Assembly (NCBI GenBank): GCA_000442015.1
Contig: KE561047.1
Span: 79,341 to 143,340 of the forward strand
Length of the DNA stretch: 64,000 nucleotides
Reading direction: 5' to 3'
Origin: Rozella allomycis CSF55
Lineage: Eukaryota
Shown here: positions 4,788 through 38,899 of the stretch, one piece after another
Numbering within the stretch: position 1 is the first letter of the stretch
Layout of the letters: each line of letters begins with the position of its first letter
The notes under the pieces: model-generated
Told to the model about the DNA's origin: nothing
What the model saw: only the letters and a program-made list of their open reading frames with translations
Databases searched by the model: none
Position numbers and translations under genes: made by a program

Positions 4788-5874
4788 TTAATACGACAGC
4801 ATTTGGGCCTTAATTTCGTTCTTAACATTTTCACATAAAAGCAAATCTTCAAGGGACGAAATTTCATAGCGTCTATCTATTAGTTTTCTAAGTTCAATGC
4901 ATTCTGATTCTGTAAAATCGGTCATGGCACAGTCGATTATCTCACATTGTTTCACTGTTAAAATAAGTTTCTGTTTTAATGTTTGAAATAACATACTTTC
5001 TTGTTACGCACTTCGATGATCTGTTTAAATTCTGGGGTTCTACCCCACACCCATTTCCAACTATGAAGTTCATCATTGAAGGGGATTGAATCAGACAAAA
5101 TCTCCTGTTCGTCAACGTATTTTATCATTCAAATATATCAAAGTTATTTACTGAAATGATAGACTGTGTCTCTTTTAGTTTTTTTATAACGTGTTGGACA
5201 AAATCATCATGACGGAAATCCCAATTCCCTATTTCATTGATATTTATGCAAGGCGATGGGACGCTATGAATAGCCTTTGTATCGAAAAAGACTGTTTTCT
5301 CGCTCAAACAAGATCTTAACTGTGATAAATCTGAATTTCTTAAAAGAGTTCCATGATGGTAAGACGAATTGTTTGTAATTCTAAAAGCGGACCCTGAAAT
5401 CTTCGTATGTATATATCATTTCTTTTACTTTTTTGTCTTTGTAAACAACATCAAATCTTGAGTTTACACGGAAATCAACGTTTAAGGCGTCTGTTAATGT
5501 ATCAGCGAGAAGTTTCGATGCATGCGATCTGTCAAAGTCTTGACGAGGCCTTATCCAAGAATAGCAACTGTTCCCCAGATCCTGAAATACTATTTAATAT
5601 ATTTTGTGAATTACATGGTACACAGTTCCTCCTCCACTATATCTCCTCAAAATTGGCACTTCATTCTTTTTACAAAATTTAATGTTGCACTCTTGCCATA
5701 TATTCTGATAACTTTTAAATAATTAATTACTTGGTTTCTACCTACCACCAGACATGTTCTATTTCGGTACAGAAGAAAAGTATTTGCAATGTTTTTGAGT
5801 GATTTTTGAAACAGGAATTCTTCGTAGCCTAAATTTATAAAAGGATTTGTGCATTTTGATACAATTATGTTCAT
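4788..5874 (-). CDS. Lipoate-protein ligase A / lipoyltransferase
   Basis: NPFINLGYEE, VVGRNQN, RRYSGGGTVYHDLGN, KISGSAF, HHGTLL, SWKWVWGRTPEF. 5 introns, one apparently GT-TG. Confidence 0.88.
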
Positions 5875-6632: not shown

Positions 6633-9539
6633 GTCATGTGGATAGGATACTTTTCTGAATAGACTTGCAATAACTTGTGCTGGTTTTAATAAAGTATGCT
6701 CTGCCTTGGGAACTTGTGAATACTCTTCTTCTAGATTAGGCGCTCTACTCAAAGCATCTGCTAGGAAATTTTCCTTACCAGCTATATATGAAATTCGAAA
6801 ATTGAAATCAGAAAAAAACATAGCCCATCGTGCTTGCCGGCGATTCAAAATTTTTGAGGTCATGAAAAATGTTAAATTTTTATGATCAGTTTGTACTTCA
6901 ATACAGTCTTGAGCACCAACTAAATAATGGCGCCAAACTTGGAAACAGTCCTTTATGGCTAGTAATTCTTTGTCGTGGATTTCGTAGTTTAATTCTGCCG
7001 TTGAAAATTTTCTAGAATGATAGGCAACTGGATGTAGGATATTCTCTTCGTCCTTTTGTAACAATACACCACCCAAAGCGTAATCTGAAGCATCTGTTTG
7101 TACCACAAAAGACTTAGATAAATCGGGAAATTTTAAAATTGGCATTTCAATAAATTTCTGTTTTAACATTTTAAAAGAACTACTGCAATCACAATTCCAA
7201 TCATATTTTTCATTCTTCTTTAGTAAGTTTGTTAAAGGTATAATTAATTTAGAATAATTAGGAATAAATTTGCGATAGAAATTTGTAACACCTAAAAACC
7301 TTTGTAATTGTTTTAAATTCTTTGGTTCTCCCCAGTTCATTATACAATCAATTTTACTCTTATGCATTGACACACCGTTAACATTAATATCAAATCCAAG
7401 GAAATCCACTTCTGTCACATGAAAAAAACATTTCTGTAATTTCGCAAATAAATGATGTTCTCTTAATCTTTGTAAGACAGTCTTAACATGTATCTTATGA
7501 TCTTTTAATGATTTGAAAAATATCAAAATATCGTCTAAATAAATAACAACGTACAAGTCCAATAAATCGTGAAATATGGTATTCATCATTTTTTGAAAAA
7601 CTGATGGGGCATTACAAAGTCCAAATGGCATTACCTGGTATTCAAACTGGCCATATTTGGTCCTAAAAGCCGTTTTCCACTGATCTGATTTTGAAACTCT
7701 TATTAGATTATAGGCACTTTTAAGATCCATTTTTGTAAATATTTTAGCTCCTTTTAGATTATCCAGTAAATTCTGAATGAGCGGAATTGGATATCTGTTT
7801 TTAACTGTAATATCATTCAATTTTCTATAATCTACAACCAATCTTAAGCTTCCATCTTTTTTCTTTACGAACATAATTGGGGATGCTGCAGGTGATTTGC
7901 TAGCCACAATAAATTTCTTTTTTAAGTTCTCATCTAAGTACTTTTTTAATTCTTTTGATTCATCTTGGGACAAATTATAGATAGGTCCAAACGGTGGTTT
8001 GGCGTTCGGCATAAGTTCAATCGCAATATCAAACTCTGAATGTTCTGGTAGTACATCAGCCTTGGTTTCATTAAAAACATCTTGATATTCTTTGTAGTCT
8101 TCTGGAAGCAGAGTTTCTTTTGAGGAATTTGTTCGCAAAATGGAAGTTGTAGAAGTCTTAAAACGTTCAGAAGATTTAGAATGATTTTGATTAGATTTTG
8201 TGGACATGGCTTTGATAGAATTTGAATGAGGTTCAGTTTTATTAGGAATACACGAACTATAATTAGAAATAGATGTACTATTATTAGATATAGATGGTCT
8301 AGTATTAAGAATAGAAATCATATTTTTAGAAATAGATGACATGTCTTTTGAAATAGATGACATGTTTTTAGAAGTAAATACCATGCTTTTAGTCTTCCAA
8401 TTAATATTTGGATTAGTTTTCTTCAACCAATCCATTCCCAAAATAATATTAAAATGTGGACTTTCGATAATTTTAAATGTGTGTTGATGCTTCGTACCAT
8501 TGATTGTGAAAATTAAATCTTTACAGTGATGAGTAATCACCAACTGTTCTCCATCTACAGTTTGTACTGTTTCGCTTTTGTGCATAGCGTAGTTTGGTAT
8601 TTTATATGCTTCTACAAAAGCACGATCAATGAAGGATGCAGACGCACCAGAATCAATAAGCGCATTTGTAGATAAAGCACTAGAATTAAACATAGAAATA
8701 GAAATAGAAAAGACTAGATGGTAAGAAGTTAAATTATTCTTTATGGACTGCAATGAACAATCTTTTGCTAAATGACCTCTTTGTCTGCAACGAAAACATC
8801 GACCTTCCCTTTTACATTTTTCACGCCCTTCTGAGGTCAACTTTGATATTTTATTAAATGTGGCATCAATCATCATTGGTTCTGAAAAATTCTCTTCATC
8901 ATGCATCTGAGGCTGATTCACGTTTGATAATGATTTCATTGCATACATTTTATTTCTTAATTTTCTTTCCTCAATTAATAATAGTAAATTATAGAATTCT
9001 TGCAAAGTTTTTGGTTCATTGTGATATTCAAGAGTTTCTTTGATGTTTGGATTAAGAGACTTAAATACAAAAGCTTGTATGGCCTCATCATTAAATCCTG
9101 ATAATGGTGCAAGTCTCTGAAATTCAGCAATCAATGCACTCACCGACCTACGTCCTTGTTTCATTTCCATTATTTCTTGCTGAATAGCCATTTTGTTTTC
9201 TCTGAGACCAAATTGTCTTTTCAATTGTGACACAAAGTCTTCATAAGTTCTTAGGTCTTCATCAATCAACCAATATGATTCCAACCAGTTGGATACTGGC
9301 CCACGACAGTATGAAGCTGCATATATAATCTTCTTGTTATCCGTATTGTACATTTGATCATTTATGTCAAACACAAAACTTAATTGTCGTATAAAGGCTG
9401 AAAGTTTCTTTGGGTTTCCATAGAAATATTCTGGCTCGCTAATCTTAGCTAAATTGACTTTTCCAGGAGCTGCCATAAGTTTCTCAGATATCTGACTCAA
9501 TGCTTGAGTTTGTGCAATAAAATATTCTTGTAAATCCAT
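6633..9539 (-). CDS. Ty3/Gypsy gag-protease-RT-RNaseH polyprotein, single ORF, 3' end lost at gap
   Basis: Zn knuckle CFRCRQRGHLAKDC, protease LIDSGAS, RT YLDD, RNase H QTDASDYALGGVL and ADALSR. Confidence 0.96.
8241..8385 (-). repeat. 21-nt degenerate tandem repeat in the protease-RT linker
   Basis: About 6 units encoding SKNMSSI/SKDMSSI/SKNMISI-like heptads. Confidence 0.8.
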
Positions 9540-9560
9540 GTTGTTTTAGTCTTGTTAAAG

Positions 9561-9680
9561 TGTAAGAATTAATCAACTAATTAATATAGAGGAATAATAG
9601 TTATGTTAATAATCTGAATTAACAAGACTAGGGTCTTGTATTCAGTGAATTTATTTATATTGTTTTCTTAAGCTTCAATC
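9561..9680 (-). repeat. Partial 5' LTR with TATA box, ending ...CTTACA
   Basis: Minus-strand TATAAA at 9654-9659. Terminal CA at 9561-9562, followed 2 nt later by a PBS-like 12-mer and then the gag ATG at 9539. Confidence 0.75.
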
Positions 9681-9681
9681 N

Positions 9682-9972
9682 CTTATTATCCATTTTTAAA
9701 AGGTAGAGGATTTTTAACTAAAAGAAAGAAAAGGTATTGAATGTGGGGAGATATAAATATAATGGAGAGTGGGAAATTATTCCTGAAGTAAACGATGGAC
9801 AGCCAATGACGCTACCATGGATTACAGCTGATCCTGAGAATTTACAAAGAGATCTTCCTCCGCCATTAGTTGCTGTGGTTGAAGAAGGCGATCTCTTTTA
9901 CTTGCCATCGTTGTGGTATCATAAAGTAGAACAAGATGGATTTACTGTTGCAGTGAACTATTTGTTAAAATG
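9682..9972 (+). CDS. JmjC protein 3' part (second, slightly divergent copy overlapping 6525-6631)
   Basis: GDLFYLPSLWYHKVEQ...AVNY. First ~110 nt are near-identical to 6525-6631 with several substitutions. Confidence 0.8.
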
Positions 9973-9973
9973 N

Positions 9974-11426
9974 TCACCCCCTCTTTTTGGTTGTCGTTTC
10001 GTCTTGTGATATTGATCGATTAAAGGCAAATGTTTCGTGAGTGTCTCAGGTGTTTCCCAGCTTCTTTCTGATGGAGGTTGATTTTTCCATTGAATTAAGT
10101 AATGTAATTTTTCATTTATAAATTTAGAATCTACTATATAATCTGGCTGTAATTCATTATCAGCATTGACTAATATAGGGTAATCCTGGAATTTTTTCTT
10201 TGTGAAAAATTGTTTTGAGGGATAATAAGGCTCCAATAAAGATACATAAAACACATTGTGGATATGATAATCTGGTGGAAGTTTGAGCTTGTAGGTAACT
10301 TCATTTATTTTTTCTACAATAGTAAAAGGTCCAATGAATGGGAAATCCAATTTCTTACATGGTCGCGTGGATTTTATGTTGTCTGTTTTCAAAAATACTT
10401 TGTCTCCTATATTGTAGAGTTTCAATAAACGCTTATTGTTTGCATGTTTTGCTTGTTCTTCCTGACTTTTCTTTATTGAATTCAATAAATATTTGTTAAC
10501 TCTCTTTAAATTCATTATAATGTTTTCTGCTTTAGGGACTGTTGAAACAAATGACGGGCAAAGATCAATGGATGGATGAAAACCATAATTAGCAAAAAAT
10601 GGTGTTAATTGCGTTGAGGCTTGAACAGTATTGTTATATGTGAATTCTGCAAAATAAAGCAATTCTGACCAATTTGTTTGTTCAAAATTAACATATGCTC
10701 TTAAATATTGTTCAAGAATCTGATTCGTTCTTTCAGTCTGACCATCGGTTTCCGGGTGAAATGCTGTGGATAATGCTGGTTTACAATTCAATAATTCCCA
10801 AAAACGCTTCCAAAATTTAGAGATGAATTGAGGGCCTCGATCAGAGATTATTGATTGTGGAACTCCATGAATTCGAAAAATATTTTTCATGTATAACTCT
10901 GCCGTTTGATGAGCCGTTATTGTTTTAGAACAGGGCAAAAAATGAGCCATTTTTGTCAGACGATCCACGATTACACAAATAGAGTCCATTTTACTACTTA
11001 GAGGTAAATCAGTGATAAAGTCCAAAGAAATAGAAGTCCAGGGTTTTTTTGAAAGAGGAATATTTTGAAGTAGACCATATTTAAGATGTTTAGGCTTTTT
11101 AATCATTTTGCAAGTAATACATGATTTAATATAATGCAGAATATATTTCTTCATTTGTGGCCAATAAAAATCTCGATTAACTAAATCATAAGTTTTTCGA
11201 AAACCAAAGTGTCCTCCCAATAAACTATCATGTCTTGTATTAAGTATATCTAACTTAAGTTCGTTGTCATCTGGTACATAAATTGAACTATTTTTGAATA
11301 AAAGATTGTTTTGAATAGAAAATAAAGGATACTTTTCAGGATGCTTTTTAACATTTTGAAAAATATTAGTTGAAGAAATTTGTGATTTAATCCTTTCTAT
11401 TAGAGCACTTTGTTGATTTTGAGATG
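9974..11426 (-). CDS. Retrotransposon integrase with C-terminal chromodomain
   Basis: HHCC Zn motif, SLDFITDL, SDRGPQF, TERTNQ (DDE), GPF motif, YLIQWKN..SWE. Ends in purine tract AAAAAGAGGGGGTGA. Confidence 0.95.
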
Positions 11427-11825
11427 NAAACGGTAGATGAAGGTCAGTAGCGATAGAAGAAAGGGGTAAAATGAAATTCATATCGATTAAATTTTATATT
11501 TAATCACAATTTCTATGGCTTTTTGAAACTAATGTCAAAACAGTTTTGTGTGAAGAAATTTATTGTGAATNCAGGGTATAAGAAGGGATCGGAAAATAAA
11601 TAGAAAATACGTTACTACTCAACTCTTTTCTAAGTTTTTAATTAGTTTTCTTTATTAATTGAATAATAATAATAAGAAAAATCAAATCAATCAATCCTAA
11701 AGAAACTACATTTATTAATTTTAAGACTATTGGTATGACATGCATTTTGGGATCAACTATCATTATTTCCAGTTCTTGAAAAGCATTTCAAATTAGATAT
11801 AAAATTATAGATAAATTAATCAATT

Positions 11826-13621
11826 TTATTCTATTGGTTGAGGTTGTAATGAGAGGAAATGTAAAATAAATTGAATCTTTTTCTTTTCCATAAATTTAAC
11901 ATCTGAGAGGGGCCTTATCAATACCGATGCGAAGATTGTTGCGATTTCTTCAACACTAATGGATTGATTCTCTTGATACAAAATTTCTCTTGCTAATGAA
12001 GTTAGATAAACAAAAGTGTTATAATGCTCCACGGGGAACTTTTGAACAATCTGTGCGTTAAAATCTATAAATTTACTAATCTGCATGCCGTGTAATTCTG
12101 AGAAGATTCAAGGCATAGAATTTCCCATTGATGTGGAACAACAGGGTCTGGCAGAGTTTCTAGAAATCGAATCAAACACTCGCACATTGATAAAACGCTC
12201 TCTATTTTATTCTAATTAAATTTTATGTTGTTCTTTACAGGAAGATTGAATGGCTCTCCTGTATCTAAGCATTCTCTANAACTTCTGAGAGGGGTTTTAT
12301 CAATACCGACGCGAAAATGGTTGCGATTTCTTTAACACTAATGGATTGATTCTCTTGATACAAAATTTCTCTTGCTAATGAAGTTAGATAAACAAAAGTG
12401 CTATAATGCTCCACGGGGAACTTTTGAACAATCTGTGCGTTAAAATCTATAAATTTACTAATCTGCATGCCGTTTAATTCTGAGAAGATTCAAGGCATAG
12501 AATTTCCCATTGATGTGGAACAACAGGGTCTGGCAGAGTTTCTAGAAATCGAATCAAACACTCGCACATTGATAAAACGCTCTCTATTTTATTCTAATTA
12601 AATTTTATGTTGTTCTTTACAGGAAGATTGAATGGCTCTCCTGTATCTAAGCATTCTCTAATGTAGTCTACCATGCCTTGTTCACCAGGAATTGTGAAAA
12701 GCCCTTCAGTCTTCAATCCAAAGTTATAAATGTAGTCCACCATTCGCCATATTTCTTTTGGTATATCTAATGGGGCGCTTCCTTTCTTTGGCCTTGACCT
12801 GACTGGCCCATGTATATGAACCAGGGTTGATAATGGCATTCCAAAGCAGGTTGGTTGAAAGTCACCAGAGACAGTCACAAAGAAGTCTTTGCCATTCTCT
12901 AAATTTAAAATAACGATATCTTCAATCTTGTCTGTTTGACTATTCAAGGCAGCAACAGTCTCATTTGTAATATTAACAACAAACGAAATGGGAATCGAAT
13001 CCCCTGGTAGAAGCATCCCAAATGCAGGCGTCACATTTAACCAAGGCTTGCAAAAGGTCTTATCGTTTAATTTGGGAACGAATCTAAAGGACACAATAAC
13101 CTTTTATGTAAAGATTAATAATCGTACGGGTCCAACATTAGAAAGAGTAATTTTCATAGTTTTTGGTCTTTTGTAATACACGCTGTCGTATATCAAAGTG
13201 TTCTTGTCCAAAGTTGCATCAGGCAGAGACTCATTTTCAAACTTGTCCAACGCTCTAATAACATTCTGATGAACTTTATCATATTTTTCCTTGTCTATTA
13301 ATTTAATCATTCAAAATAAAAACTAAAAATTACTTTGATGTTGAAAGAAGCGCTCACGGGTTTATGGTCACTCATTTTCAAACTTGGATGTGATTGATAT
13401 GATAGGTTCTCAACATCATCATTCTTACACCACAAAATTCGATCACACCACGAAGGAGTCCTTCGTTTCTCACAAAAATAAATATAAAATTAAAATTTTA
13501 CGATGTGTCGTAATTGTCTGTGCCAGGGTCAAATTTGTAACTTGGCGGGAAAGTTATTTGGGCTTCCTGGAATTGCTGAAATACCAAGTTTGCCCTTTTC
13601 TCTTTTAAAAGCAAATAATAT
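11826..13621 (-). CDS. OCRL/INPP5B inositol 5-phosphatase, C-terminal half (phosphatase end, ASH, RhoGAP-like), two overlapping contig copies
   Basis: [43 protein letters not shown]. About 11900-12278 duplicates 12280-12660. The second copy has TAA at 12474-12476 where the first has TAC. Confidence 0.85.
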
Positions 13622-13622
13622 N

Positions 13623-14058
13623 AATGCCTTGTTCAGTAGGAATTGTGAATAGCCCTTCAGTCTTCAATCGAAAGTTATAAATGTAGTCCAGCATTCGCCA
13701 AATTTCTTTCGGTATATCTAATGGAGCGCATCCTTTCTTAGATGTTTGCCTGATAGGGCTCCGCAGCAAACAAACAAACACAAATTACTTGGATTCTAAA
13801 TTTAGAATAACGATATCTTCGATCTTGTCTGTTTGACTATTCAGCGCAGCAACAGTCTCATTTGTAATAGTAACAACAAACGAAATGTGAATGGAATCCC
13901 CTGGTAGAAGCATACCAAACGCAGGCGTCACATTTAACCAAGGCTTGCAAAAGCTCTTATCGGTTTATTTGGGAACGAATCTAAACTAAAAAGAGTAATT
14001 TTCATAGTTTTGGGTCGTTTGTAATACATGATGTCGTGTATCAAAGTATTCTTGTCTC
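13623..14058 (-). pseudogene. Degenerate OCRL ASH-domain fragment
   Basis: Similar to about 12670-13210 with internal deletions and substitutions. Confidence 0.8.
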
Positions 14059-14155
14059 ATTTAATCAAATATATGTCATCATTTATTCTTTAATCCTTTC
14101 GTACATTTGATTCCTTTTCCATTACATATTCCGAATTTTCAGATATTATTTTTTG

Positions 14156-15535
14156 ATGTCTGGCATAGAACCTCCTACCACAGGAAAGGTCTTATTACAT
14201 ACAAATTATGGTGTGCTTGATATTGAACTTTTCTGCAAAGAGACTCCTGCCACCTGTAGAAATTTTGTACAACTATGCTTGGAAGGGTATTATGATAACA
14301 CTATTTTCCATCGCCTTGTGCCAGGATTCATTATTCAAGGAGGTGATCCTACAGGGAAAGGAAATGGTGGAGAGAGTATTTATGGGCGGCCATTTGAAAA
14401 TGAATTCCATTCACGACTAAAGTTCAACCGAAGGGGATTATTGGGGATGGCTTCCTTGAATGAAAACGAAAATACCTCACAGTTCTTTTTTACCCTTGGT
14501 GAAACATCGGAATTAACAAAGAAAAATACATTGTTTGGAAGGATCGTTGGCGATTCTATATACAACCTATTAAGAATGAGTGAAATAGAGCTAGAGGGAG
14601 AGCGTCCTGTATATCCTCCCATTATTCAGAAAGTTGAAGTTCTTGATCACCCATTTGATGATATTCAAGTTCGAGAACTAAAAAAGGAACCGACTATTAA
14701 CGAAAAGTCCACCAGTGAAAATAAACGTAAAACAATGGCAAAGAAAAACAAAAACCTATTATCATTTGGAGAAGAAGAGATGATAGTTGCAAAAGATGTC
14801 AAAATGAAATCTCTTCATGATTCTATCAAGAATGACCCTAAAATTCGCCCCGAAACTTCAATCGATTTAAATCACACAAAGAAAGATATTAAAGCCATCA
14901 ATACAGAGATTCATCCTTCGCCTCCTCAGAGAAACGTAGATAACATTCCTACTGGGAATGACAACTTATCAAAGCAAAACGATGATCAAAAATTGTAATA
15001 ATTTAGCTGATTTGAAATTTAGAAATATAAAAAAAGAAATTGAAAAAGTTAAACGAGGAATTCAAAAGCTTTCCCAGGTTGACAAACCAAAAACACAAAA
15101 TGAATCGTTGAACAAAGACGACGATGAATACACCAAAAATATTTTATATTTTAAGAAAAAATCCAATAAAATAGATGAAAAAGAAGTATATAGCTTTAAT
15201 TGAATTTAGAATAGAAACTTGCAATTTTGAATCGTTTTAAGAGGAAAATTGGAAAGGCCACCGAGGAAAAAGAAGAAGACGAGCAAAATCAAATAAATGA
15301 AACATCCCAAAAGAAAGTTGAATGCCTTTTGCATAATATTCCAAATCGTGAGTCCTGCCAAGATTCCTTCGGTGAAAAGATAGAAGAAACAGATGAGGGT
15401 TGGCTTGCGCACAAGTTGAAATTTGACAAGAGTTTGGGTTATAAAGACGCGAGGGATGATCCTTCAGAATTGGTCGTCATTGACCCTAGAAAGAAAGCCG
15501 AAGAAATTCTCGGCAAAAAGAAATTAAAAAAATAA
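14156..15535 (+). CDS. CWC27: Spliceosomal cyclophilin Cwc27
   Basis: EPPTTGKVLLHT, CRNFVQLCLEGYY, FENEFHSRLKFNRRGL, C-terminal WLAHKLKF and VVIDPR. 2 introns. Confidence 0.92.
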
Positions 15536-15550
15536 TCTCATTTTTATTAT

Positions 15551-16817
15551 TTATTTTGTTTTTTTGGCTATTAATTTCAAAAATATACTCTTTTTCGATT
15601 TTGTCTCAAGTGGAACTCTCTTTTCTAGTTGTTCTATTTTGGGTTGGGGAGTTTCATCATTATTTATTAAATGTAGAACTTTTAATTTTTTTGGTTTGGA
15701 TTTATTCCTAAATTCAACATTGAACTGGACGTCGGCATCAATATTCAGAAGGTCAGAGGGCAGGGGCTTTAAAGATTCGATCCATTTGTCCAAAACACAG
15801 TTTTGAAATTCTCCATTTAAAAGATTTCCTGGGCAATAATTTTTAATAAAACGCGACAAATCATTCTCACTATGCAACGCTTTGTCTTCTTCTTTGGCAA
15901 AGTCAAAACTCTTATTTGATATAATATCTAAAATTGTTTGAAATCCATGATCGAGTTCAATTGTTATCGACTTCCATTCAATGGCATGATAATTTTTGTC
16001 TAGAATAGGGAAGGTTACAGAGGACGTGAAAATTGGCAAAGGAATAAACCTTTTCTTGTGGAAATGATAAAACTCGAATTGATTTAATTTAATAATAATA
16101 CTTGGTAATCTTTAATGTCCACAATTGTTTGTGAAATTTGAACTAAAAATGACGGAAGCTCCTTTAATGAAACACTAAATCTCACCAAATACACAGCTTT
16201 GAATTCCTTTATACACTAAGAGCTGAATTTACATCCAATTTAACACTATAATCACATTGATAGTTTTCTGGCCATTTGTTTGTGACGACATTTATCTAAA
16301 TAAAGGATACCTGGAAAGTTACTTTAAAAAATATATTATCACAAAATTTATCTATTATATTTGTATCAAGTGTTATCATTAGGCCGCCACCTTTTAAGTA
16401 CACTAAATCACCTTTTAGCTCACTGAAAATCAATTTCCGCTCGTACCATGGAATTATTCGCGAATCAACTTCTTTGCCGTCATAAACAGATACAAATCTA
16501 TCAGAATATAAACAAGTTCTCCTTAGAATATTTCGATGATTCTCTAGAACATGACCTTTGTAATCTATGGCGTTTTGTCTTTTTAGGAGCTGAAGGATTT
16601 GGGAATCAATATTTTCCTTGCGTGGGTTCTGATAATTCATAACTTTTTTGTACAAAGCAGAAAATGGGTTGTCTTTAGCCTTTCCTGCTGTTAATATTCT
16701 TATTCCATCAATTTTCTGGTGCTGTTCGTAGACTCTTTTTAGAAAAGGATACTGGTAAATATTAAGGTGATTATCTTTAAATGCAAAACGAACGGCGGAA
16801 GGTAAAAATGCCCCCAT
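15551..16817 (-). CDS. Hypothetical protein, 4 exons
   Basis: ORFs 16296-16823 and 15551-16039 join in frame through three GT-AG introns of 26-29 nt. No recognised domain. Confidence 0.6.
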
Positions 16818-16881
16818 GGTCAAAATTTCCTAATTCCATAAATCAACTTTGAGGGATTTGTTATCGATAGACGGCGACCAT

Positions 16882-17469
16882 ATGTTTAAAAAGTCCCCGT
16901 ATCATTTAGCAAATTACATCATTAAATGCACCGACAACAAGAAAAGACAGATACACAATGTTAACAAAATCACTGTCAGTTTTCTTGGAAAATATTTCAA
17001 GCGACCAAAAGTATTGAATCCTCAGATTATGTTATTCATTGAAGCCAATAAAGCACCAAACCATTCTCTTAAGGAATATATACAAAAGTGGAATATATTA
17101 GAGGACTCTGAGAAACAAAAGTACAAGAAGCTGAAACAAGAACGCAATAAAGAGTCCCGAGCACAATTTGCTGAATACATAGAGCGTTGTACTCATACGA
17201 TCAATTCACAAAAAGCCTCTTCTATATTTAATAGCATTGTAAGCCAAGTAAAGCTTCCACCCGAAGAAGCTAATTTTATTGAAATCTCAAGCAAAGATCT
17301 ACCAAAGCCCCCGCCACGTAGTTTGTATCATTATATAATGGGAAGATTGAAGCATGATGAAATTTTCGCTGAGCTATCAAGCGAAACAATAGAGAAATAT
17401 AAAATTGATTACGAAAATGATATTTTGAATTATGAAAATGCCTTGAAACAATACATTGAGCGGCAATAA
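16882..17469 (+). CDS. Tandem HMG-box protein (TFAM/Abf2-like)
   Basis: KWNILEDSEKQKY and PKPPPRSLYHY..FAELSSETIEKY..YENALKQY resemble two HMG boxes. Confidence 0.6.
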   Translation: MFKKSPYHLANYIIKCTDNKKRQIHNVNKITVSFLGKYFKRPKVLNPQIMLFIEANKAPNHSLKEYIQKWNILEDSEKQKYKKLKQERNKESRAQFAEYIERCTHTINSQKASSIFNSIVSQVKLPPEEANFIEISSKDLPKPPPRSLYHYIMGRLKHDEIFAELSSETIEKYKIDYENDILNYENALKQYIERQ

Positions 17470-17572
17470 ATTAGTAACTATACGAGCAATAAAAAGGCAA
17501 AAAGAAATTTAATTGAATAATAAATAAAACACGAGGATCCAGTTTATGATTGCCGTAAACAAGAAAATTTAT

Positions 17573-18201
17573 TTATGCCAAAGTTTCTTCTCCACGCAAA
17601 TATTCTCCCAAATCTGCTTGATGGTAGCCAACAATAGCCGTTGGTTCCAAAGTTTTGCATTCGACGGCAGCCCTAGCTGAGACCGCAAATCCCATTGGCT
17701 GATCATTAGCAGAGCATATAATGACACCCTGATGTTGAGGACAATCTTCACTCATTTTTTGTATGTGTGCTTTTAAAACATGATTTCCGTATAGATATGA
17801 CATTTCACCACTTGGTTTTAACCAAACTTTAAACTAATCAAAATATACCACATTCAATTACACGTGCATATTGAGCCAAAATATCTAATGCAGTGATATG
17901 TAGATTAAATTTTCCAGACTTTGTAAATTTGCCCATACAAACACCAAGAGACAAGAGATTATCTCTGCTGACATTAGATGCAAGTTTAGCAAGTTTTTCA
18001 CTTCATTGAAGGAATTTTCAATTAAATACCTGACGTAATATACTCTATCTTTTTGTAAACGGAAACAAAACGGCTCATCTGGTCTATCAATAAGGTCTGT
18101 TATGTTTCTCCCAATACTAAAATATGATGAAAAATATCATTTTACTATTTAGATAGCTTTTCAAATAAAACTCTTGTTTCTGATTCTGTCAACTCACGCA
18201 T
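17573..18201 (-). CDS. NIP7: 60S biogenesis factor Nip7
   Basis: [42 protein letters not shown]. 3 introns. Confidence 0.93.
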
Positions 18202-18510
18202 TAGCCACAATTTTTTTCTCCAGAACTTTTTAACTCTAAAATTATCATTAGAAAAATAAAACCAAAAGTAAGCTCTTTTATTCAATTATCCACATCATCA
18301 TAACTCAATCATCTGAATTATGGACATTTACTAAAGAGTAATAAAGTGGACTTAAAGCCCACATTTTAACAATTATTCTTTTATAGATATATATTTTACA
18401 TTTATTCAAACCCAATTGAAAAAAGCGNTTGAAAAAAAGCGCATCAAAAAAACAATAACCGAAATTCAGTATATTTTTTTGAAAATTCCCAAGACCCCTG
18501 CAAAGAAAAA

Positions 18511-19100
18511 ATGGTAGGTGATCCTAAACTTTTAGTTTCATTGTTTAACAGCAATATAAATCCGATATTAATATGAGCGAATCTCACTGTAGACCACCCG
18601 TTTGAGAAAAACTAGAAAGAAGCGTGGACACGTCTCTGCCGGTCACGGTCGTATTGGTATGTGAATTTTAGTCATGTAAATCTAGGCAAGCACCGCAAAC
18701 ATCCTGGTGGTCGTGGTAAAGCTGGTGGTCAACACCATCACCGTATCAACTTTGACCGATTCCATCCTGGTTACTTTGGAAAGGTCGGTATGCGCCATTT
18801 CCACTTGAACAAAAATAAGTACTGGAGACCAGTTGCCAATCTCGACAAGATGTGGACCATGGTTCCAGAAGATGTCCGTGACAAAGCTCTTTCAGGAAAA
18901 TTGGAAAAGGTATTTTAACAGTTTAAGTGGTATTAAAGGGACAAGCTGTTGTTATCGATACTGTCAAGGCTGGTTTTGCTAAAGTTCTCGGAAAGGGTCG
19001 TCTTCCAGATGTTCCATTGATTGTCAAGTCTCGCTTCTTTAGCAAGAAAGCAGAAGAAAAAATCAAGAAGGCTGGAGGAGCATGTGTTCTTATTGCTTAA
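18511..19100 (+). CDS. RPL28: 60S ribosomal protein uL15 (L27a / yeast L28)
   Basis: [27 protein letters not shown]. Introns of 79, 29 and 29 nt. Confidence 0.95.
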
Positions 19101-19310
19101 ATAAACTCATTCACATATAAATATTAATTCATTTTAGCAATCAATTAAAATATTTTGATTAATATATAATATGATCACATTGAGTGAAGATAATACTGTA
19201 AATGGGTTTCTTTGATATCATGAGTGACCATACTTTTATTGTGATGAATAAGTGAAACATACAAGCCAATTTATTTGAGTCTTGCTAATTTTTATGTGGC
19301 TTGAGCAGGA

Positions 19311-19703
19311 ATGAGTTGTGCCACTTGTAGTTCCTGTGTATGTAAATCAGACAAAGAGATTACAGTTCCCTTTCCCGAAAATTTAAGTAATATTCACGAC
19401 TATATTCTTTTCATGTCCCCGACATCATATTCTTCACAAAGAATCTTGTCCGATCTAGCACATAATTTACCAACAGAAAAGGCTATTGAAGTATTTAAAA
19501 AGCTTTATCATTTAAACTTGTATGACCATTCACTGGCGATATATTTAAAGAATGTACCAGAGCCATTGCATGAAAACATTTATCAAGAACTGGAGGATTT
19601 GAATAGTCAGAAGGTTGCCAAAGTCAATGAGGAAATAGAGTTTTTTGAATGTTTTAATACCACTATTAAACTGAAACGAATGAGATTGCCCAAAGGCTAT
19701 TGA
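19311..19703 (+). CDS. Hypothetical 130-aa protein with N-terminal Cys cluster
   Basis: ATG-initiated intact ORF in a gene-sized gap. Confidence 0.55.
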   Translation: MSCATCSSCVCKSDKEITVPFPENLSNIHDYILFMSPTSYSSQRILSDLAHNLPTEKAIEVFKKLYHLNLYDHSLAIYLKNVPEPLHENIYQELEDLNSQKVAKVNEEIEFFECFNTTIKLKRMRLPKGY

Positions 19704-19777
19704 ATCTTTTCTTTTATGTCAGTATTGATTTTTGAATGAGAAATAGAGTAATAAATTAATTGGTATCATTTATATAT

Positions 19778-19978
19778 TTATTTGGCATTTTTTCTTTTTA
19801 AATATTCTGCTAATAGATGAATGGGATGAATTGTTGTTTCAGGATCTGTTCCTTCTGGCTGCAGCGAAGGATTGGAAGCAGAGTTTGTGTGTTTAACAGA
19901 TTTTAATAATTGTTCGATGGCGGGAAGCAGAGTTGGGAAGACTGATTCTTTTAAATATTCTTCCGAGTCGTCTGTCAT
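19778..19978 (-). CDS. Small Dpy-30/RIIa-like dimerisation-docking domain protein
   Basis: EYLKESVFPTLLPAIEQLL...PIHLLAEYLKRKN pattern. Confidence 0.6.
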   Translation of the reverse strand: MTDDSEEYLKESVFPTLLPAIEQLLKSVKHTNSASNPSLQPEGTDPETTIHPIHLLAEYLKRKNAK

Positions 19979-20090
19979 GTTTTCAAATATAAATATTGAA
20001 TGGTAACCAAGAAGATAAAATGAAAATGGAATTTAAAAGGATATTTCATTTAAATAAGAGAGAGAAATGGAATTTAAAGGTCAATTTTAT

Positions 20091-38527: not shown

Positions 38528-38899
38528 ATTTGTTGATGCTATTTATGGAAGGGGTTGGAATAAGTCTATATATTCCCCAAAGTCTAATCAAGAAAGTGAC
38601 ATCATTTATTTCTGAATCTTGTTTCAATAATTACGAAAAGTCCAAAACGCATTGATGAATGAAAATCTTGTACTATTCATATCCTTTTTGTAGTGACGAA
38701 AAAAAACATTAAGAGTGTTAAACTTAATTTTAAAGTGCAGATGTTAAATATTATACAAAGGACCATTCTGTAACGATTCAAATCACGCGGAGGCCAGATA
38801 GTCAAAGAAAAATGTAGAGTACTTTGCTTTCACTTTTATAGGATCTTAATTACAAACAATGAAGATGAAAATTCAGTGGAGCATATTCTAGATGATAAT

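Follow-up and report, generated by a model that had tools for sequence, protein, structure and literature searches.

Introns of the U2 type are treated as ending invariably in AG, and the closest described exceptions come from human and yeast. Human U2-type TG acceptors have been described in 36 genes, where they are alternatives beside an AG and never the sole site (Szafranski et al. 2007, PMC2374985). In Saccharomyces cerevisiae, BG 3' sites appear as a low-level error phenotype of mutants from which Prp18, or the conserved loop of this protein, is missing (Roy et al. 2023, PMC10711555). That loop is described as highly conserved and as contacting the 3' site at -3 and -4 (PMC10711555; 10.1101/212811), and its deletion is reported to free non-AG sites, BG most of all (PMC10711555). 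In the yeast P-complex structure, both terminal bases of the intron are paired, the G with the opening G of the intron and the -2 A with the branch A (10.1101/212811). A further point of reference is Stentor coeruleus, which has introns of 15-16 nt with GU-AG ends and a branch A whose position, 10 or 11, shifts with length (PMC9505925).

Among annotated fungi, minor non-canonical ends amount to 0.257% in total (PMC7072748 Table 1), and Rozella is unnamed in the main text and supplement of that paper. For Rozella, the accessible parts of three papers report intron density and introns of ~30 nt without microsporidian motifs (PMC8476143, PMC6349667, PMC13393502), and these parts do not mention non-AG ends. 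Our literature search returned no paper on TG acceptors in the Rozella lineage; most subscription papers, probably including the genome papers, lay outside its reach.

Here, we analysed 64,000 nucleotides of the Rozella allomycis CSF55 genome (contig KE561047.1, positions 79,341 to 143,340), hereafter the window, which belongs to contig C699 in a eukaryotic assembly of 11.86 Mb. It contains an OCRL/INPP5B-type 5-phosphatase gene whose product is 37-50% identical to proteins of fungi, amoebozoans and animals. Coverage by full-length homologues in tblastn revealed the domain order 5-phosphatase, ASH and RhoGAP-like, and on the exons Pfam detected PF22669 and, only weakly, PF21310 (E=0.024). Read across its copies, the gene has 13 introns, all of 26-29 nt, in the order seven GT-AG, three GT-TG and three GT-AG.

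Unlike the OCRL/INPP5B family elsewhere, the gene is represented here solely by partial and broken copies, and the public models mis-splice it. Copy A (12280..13611, minus strand) is the 3' half, comprising the end of the 5-phosphatase, the ASH domain and the RhoGAP-like part, with a reading frame that is continuous across the TG junctions and with GT-AG introns at 13101-13127, 12594-12620 and 12433-12458 (all minus strand). It begins at an assembly N, lacks the 5' half and carries a late TAA stop at 12476-12474. Beyond an N lies copy A' (11826..12278, minus strand), a near-identical (97.6%) duplicate of the copy A 3' end, which has TAC in place of the TAA and stays open until the stop at 11828-11826. 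A rearranged, deleted fragment of the ASH/RhoGAP part occupies 13623..14060 (minus strand), and the start of the public model P0030 falls inside it. Copy B (38812..40550, plus strand) is the 5' half with seven GT-AG introns of 26-28 nt. It is a pseudogene: a TAA lies at 40164-40166, followed by deletions of 32 nt and 10 nt with a 2-nt insertion between them, and the copy is truncated. Thus, the lesions of which the initial annotation had warned in both copies are real. More broken OCRL fragments are located at L010/L011 (C699:49486-51624) and at L027 (C661), and the C661 fragment has the same TAA as copy A, indicating that the gene was duplicated several times. Genome searches for the TG-flanked exon and for an intact 5' half found no intact full-length copy and no further copies of that exon. 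Ty3/gypsy-like retroelement frames (window 6633-11424, minus strand) lie directly downstream of copy A, a dispersed repeat at ~11420-11730 has numerous matches across the genome, and a tRNA-Asn gene (window 40586-40659, minus strand) is located at the point where copy B breaks off.

The first GT-TG intron of copy A, with a length of 29 nt (GTAAAA...TTTTG; 13473-13501, minus strand), interrupts YDTS|EKRR and has an A at intron position 23; PF22669 positions 241|243 flank its split codon. The second (26 nt, ...GAATG; 13308-13333, minus strand) interrupts FNIK|IKLIDK and has an A at both positions 23 and 24. The third is cut by the N at 13622, so that its final 10 bases remain (...ATTTG, acceptor 13612; 13612..13621, minus strand), and these are identical to copy B, where the whole 28-nt intron is found at 40194-40221 (plus strand; FDQ|LLKE; A at position 24). 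Copy B also carries the orthologues of the first two, at 40300-40328 (29 nt, plus strand) and 40460-40486 (27 nt, plus strand), respectively. For these five full introns and the acceptor at 13612, the coordinates, lengths and ends given in the initial annotation were exact to the base, including the TG at all three sites of the second copy. The donors start with GTAA or GTAT, like the bulk of the genome (consensus GTA, 96%).

To locate the junctions, all of the in-frame intron lengths for each donor were scored with an HMM built from 27 homologues outside Rozella. The top-scoring cut was TG at three of the three OCRL junctions, exceeding the AG alternatives by 14-21 bits. The 28-nt intron of copy B (40194-40221) scored 68.6 bits, as compared to 54.8 for an AG at 40 nt. 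The 29-nt intron (13473-13501) reached 443.6 bits versus 422.6 for an AG at 41 nt, and the 26-nt intron (13308-13333) reached 443.6 bits versus 423.8 for an AG at 44 nt. The residues that the AG models delete are present in 25/25, 26/26 and 27/27 of the homologues spanning the sites, and one L, one K and one R among them are invariant. Therefore, where homology places the OCRL junctions, the intron ends in TG and not in the AG that defines a U2-type acceptor.

It had been proposed that AG alternatives would need introns of 40-44 nt and would delete phosphatase residues, and both points were borne out. A self-trained gene model, which also yields false calls, was trained on 853 kb (contigs C699, C861, C769 and C723, ~7% of the genome, chosen by size, window included). 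When only GT-AG was permitted, it called 1,527 introns, 1,451 of 26-31 nt, one of 25 nt and a single one of 40-44 nt. The comparison of the two copies is consistent with the same boundaries. Copies A and B differ at 8/43 intron-interior bases and 13/229 exon bases, and the stretch between the TG and the in-frame AG behaves like exon, since only 2/42 of its bases differ (Fisher two-sided p=0.09). The TGs themselves are unchanged (0/6 bases), which is no more than chance when set against 8/43 for the intron interior, and the conservation of TG was thus rejected as proof of selection. What the identical TG in two diverged copies does rule out is a sequencing read error; beyond this, the earlier argument from conservation is weaker than it was put. 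Taken together, homology, the length distribution and exon-like conservation support GT-TG splicing at the three OCRL sites as the best reading.

An alternative would be that only AG is used, in which case the OCRL copies are pseudogenes or tolerate deletions of 4-6 residues, the TGs are decaying and a functional AG copy lies in an assembly gap. The lesions in both copies and the failure to find an intact one in the assembly fit this account, as do the public models, which take the AGs. P0030 and P0001 do so at two OCRL sites and thereby lack residues conserved in the homologues. However, decay would need three independent A-to-T changes without other damage to the acceptors, and the introns would belong to the nearly empty 40-44-nt class. 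Moreover, copy B has lost the in-frame AG located 18 nt downstream of the 40460-40486 intron, and the 77 codons compared between the copies contain eight synonymous and five non-synonymous differences, which point to past purifying selection. The record P0001 bears on this question as well. It is 98% identical (~2% of residues differ from copy A), derives from a separate 2,882-base contig, and was modelled with both AG skips, yet the adjoining 27-nt GT-AG intron was called. Given that its predictor recognised that intron, the P0001 locus, judged from its protein model, probably also lacks an AG at both TG sites. On balance, exclusive use of AG is improbable.

GT-TG splicing as the preferred reading also extends beyond OCRL, as eight of the 35 non-OCRL candidates are backed by homology (seven TG and one CG). 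In the HMG-CoA lyase and FabG-like reductase genes, reading through the 27-nt intron produces an exact 9-residue insertion relative to PDB chains. In a scan of 67 exons, Pfam positions run gapless over the TG junction in Rad26/SNF2 (235|236), CWH43 (121|122) and ATG4, and they are continuous over the CG junction of TVP23. For a CDK gene, the 26-nt TG intron scores best (454.0 versus 449.1 bits), and for SLY1, compared with nine homologues, the 29-nt TG intron scores best (639.6 versus 633.9 bits). In the backed TG/CG introns, the next in-frame AG lies at 40-81 nt or is absent within 100 nt, and its use loses conserved residues every time. The genes in which no in-frame AG follows within 100 nt are SLY1, Rad26 and TVP23; SLY1, moreover, is a single-copy gene, and both observations further argue against the exclusive use of AG. 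Thus, the GT-TG reading proposed for OCRL is the best by homology, but its restriction to OCRL was too narrow, as intact, single-copy conserved genes share such ends.

The other non-OCRL candidates lie outside families or in variable regions, with no family spanning the junction. The junction of an FHA candidate was off by one position, CK2-beta was ambiguous, and a Ras TG candidate was rejected as a false call, since the length expected from the Ras motif is obtained with an AG at 30 nt. Two candidate GT-TG introns in the window come from the gene model alone. One, in a lipoate-ligase gene (26 nt; 5126..5151, minus strand), has its junction in a variable region without coverage in the PDB alignments, and the other, in a TBC-domain gene (28 nt; 59984..60011, minus strand), has a rival in-frame AG at 34 nt. 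A TBCK-like gene carries two candidate GT-TG introns (L089:7112-7138 and 8443-8469, minus strand); a homologue search for it returned none, and its PDB match was weak. Other genes with two non-AG candidates are found at C861:3120-3330. The candidate GT-CG introns are located at L066:5749-5774, L057:3713-3740, L073:4185-4210 and L036:3303-3330, among which TVP23 is Pfam-backed and CK2-beta is the ambiguous case. The first 8 bases of the FabG-like TG intron (L071:903-929, minus strand) equal the first 8 bases of the following exon, as if the intron had been gained via tandem duplication.

To assess the non-AG ends without regard to family, 15 non-AG ends were allowed at one penalty, and 38 GTA donors without an AG at 26-33 in any frame were collected. 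At these AG-less donors, TG occupied 19/76 in-frame slots versus 8/152 out-of-frame slots (p=3e-5), and CG occupied 4/76 versus 1/152, a weak excess (p=0.04). The same all-ends-equal parse showed no enrichment of GG, AA, AC, AT or TT at these donors. Under a stricter penalty, an in-frame TG or CG was present at 14 of 19 donors, and in a TG-blind test, in which the donors came from runs with TG forbidden, the in-frame TG count was 15/47 versus 11/94 (p=0.005). The resulting rate of the TG/CG class ranges from ~1% net of chance to 2.7% in the permissive count (34 TG and 5 CG among 1,464). Kinase-domain introns gave one TG in 49, in a survey whose distant HMM preferred wrong ends in 6/31 well-separated cases. 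A phase-blind dinucleotide count after GTAA/T showed an AG peak at 26-28 and no TG peak, but is too weak for a class of 1-3%. RNA run X1, compared with window 13100-20000 at 80% likeness, gave 14 short partial matches and no joints, leaving the introns and a ribosomal-protein control gene both uncovered.

These counts bear on two ways in which an AG might be hidden from the assembly. Sequencing or assembly errors, or rare diploid alleles, could have turned AG to TG, and the patchiness of the assembly (15 single-N joins with shuffled fragments in the window) would be compatible with such an origin. However, the same TG occurs in two diverged copies and is implied in P0001 too, and errors would also yield AA, AC, AT and GG, none of which is enriched, making this origin very unlikely. 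Similarly, the pre-mRNA could be altered to AG before splicing, by U-to-A editing or base insertion, leaving a canonical spliceosome at work. The ordinary appearance of U2AF35, U2 snRNA, Slu7 and Fyv6 would suit such a process, which would nevertheless have to cover both TG and CG. We know of no case in which nuclear pre-mRNA undergoes U-to-A or C-to-A editing, and we regard this explanation as highly improbable. We also considered U12-type (minor) introns and rejected them, because the donor consensus RTATCC occurs in 0/11 of the homology-backed TG/CG introns. It is found in two modelled introns of the sample, which suggests that a minor spliceosome may exist.

The positions of the acceptors follow a distance rule. 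In 1,414 of 1,429 introns, the first AG from position 26 onward serves as the acceptor, and unused AGs are skipped at position 24 (81 cases) and position 25 (42 cases). An A lies at position 23 from the donor in 62-88% of the introns for each length from 26 to 30. It is present in 715/1,070 introns of at least 27 nt and in 312/351 of those of 26 nt, as compared to 360/1,070 at position 12. The gene model has no donor-anchored term there, and the A is therefore not built in. An A at position 23 (or 24) whatever the intron length, together with a hard 26-nt floor, was observed in all four of the sampled contig pieces, and no branch consensus was found around it in the sampled introns. Ten of the eleven homology-backed TG/CG introns have an A at position 23 or 24. 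This A resembles a branch point whose place is set by its distance from the donor. The arrangement resembles that of Stentor coeruleus in its very tight length, lack of a branch consensus and fixed-place branch A, but the Rozella introns are 26-31 nt long, keep their A at 23/24 as counted from the donor and include some with non-AG ends (PMC9505925). No overall depletion of TG was detected ahead of the used AGs (42 seen, 41.7 expected), a count confounded by the A at position 23, and this suggests that TG is a fallback acceptor and not the equal of AG.

On these grounds, we infer with a probability of roughly 80% that the OCRL introns exemplify a minor, genome-wide class of U2-type, distance-defined GT-TG/CG introns. 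The class shares with the human acceptors a U2-type GT donor and TG as the last two intron bases; it differs in that TG is here the sole site giving the full protein, with the next AG 4-41 nt off, and in that the class would account for ~1-3% of introns (PMC2374985).

The genome encodes a U2 spliceosome, as U2 snRNA, U2AF35, Prp8, Slu7, Prp18 and Fyv6 were all found. The U2 snRNA has the usual branch-pairing stretch. The AG reader U2AF35 is likewise intact and agrees with the S. pombe chain in the second zinc finger, and its normal appearance speaks against the TG reading. Slu7 and Fyv6 are ordinary-looking, a segment that we take to be Prp8 is present, and Prp18 has a full gene model with a PF02840 match above the cut-off. 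Loss of U2AF35, Slu7, Prp18 or Fyv6 as the cause was thus rejected, all four being present. A second U2AF35-like gene, which we take to be of the ZRSR2 type, is located at L110:612-1755 (minus strand).

Prp18 (L117:1561-1753; G000:C1022) carries an altered loop between helices 4 and 5, which reads SLGNAAWPMGVMGPINLNERHARDL as compared to SIGNVAWPIGVTS-VGIHARSAHSK in yeast. With yeast as the sole comparison, the first half of the loop is kept, while the second half is changed and the loop is one residue longer. To our knowledge, that second half hardly varies across animals, plants and most fungi. A metagenome scan with the Prp18 exon returned five loci, none of which proved on inspection to be Prp18. 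The ends seen in Rozella share with those of the yeast mutants a retained last G and a relaxed -2 position, and the AUG, UUG, CUG and ACG-type sites match the ATG, TTG, CTG and TCG found here. They are unlike the yeast case in that the genome is natural, Prp18 is present with an altered loop, constitutive use is inferred from sequence and GG is not enriched (PMC10711555). The altered loop as a contributor to TG/CG use is a lead rather than a result, and we consider such a contribution possible but rather less than probable.

A mechanism can be outlined from these sequence statistics. In the first step, the spliceosome would bind a GTAA-type donor and then choose as branch point an A at intron position 23 or 24, in an intron that has neither a branch consensus nor space for a pyrimidine tract. 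In the second step, the first AG at position 26 or beyond would become the 3' site, with AGs at 24-25 bypassed, so that the 3' site would fall 3-8 bases past the putative branch A. In the third step, when AG is lacking in ~26-33, ligation would occur at a TG, or less often a CG, at 26-29, as the homology comparisons suggest. The fallback would retain the terminal G and its pairing with the opening G of the intron but would lose the pairing of the A with the branch A. It would be the sole productive acceptor in ~1-3% of introns and, in OCRL, in three consecutive introns of 13. The distance-defined TG reading fits the pairing in the yeast P-complex; on the other hand, the same paper reports that a U at -2 strongly impairs step 2 in yeast, which stands against it (10.1101/212811). 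A more far-reaching version, which we put forward only tentatively and hold to be on the less probable side, is that a ruler replaces recognition of the 3' sequence. It would combine the branch A at 23-24 and the remodelled Prp18 loop, with UG or CG serving as constitutive sole site in ~200-600 introns, including those of essential genes (scaled up from a 1-3% share of the ~1,480 introns in the 853-kb sample to the full 11.86 Mb). If true, a class of sole TG/CG introns at 1-3% would provide a natural test of geometry versus Prp18 proofreading in the choice of the 3' site.

The clustering in OCRL could have a meaning of its own, compatible with membership in this minor class, namely that a run of three weak acceptors is a selected throttle that lowers or stage-limits output. 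The expected number of TG-TG-TG runs genome-wide is 0.01, 0.10 and 0.32 at class rates of 1, 2 and 3%, and two non-AG introns occur in 4/513 modelled genes, which favours this idea; at the upper rate, however, such a run is not rare. As the window was picked for its TG run, the run may be a chance cluster, and we consider selection for a throttle unlikely, although less so than the exclusive use of AG.

The TG/CG class would also explain wrong public models, such as those of OCRL and SLY1, in a genome on which many studies of early fungal evolution draw. The SLY1 model, P0181, skips an exon and drops at least 60 residues, and P0030, wrong at the TG introns, is besides chimeric across the N at 13622.
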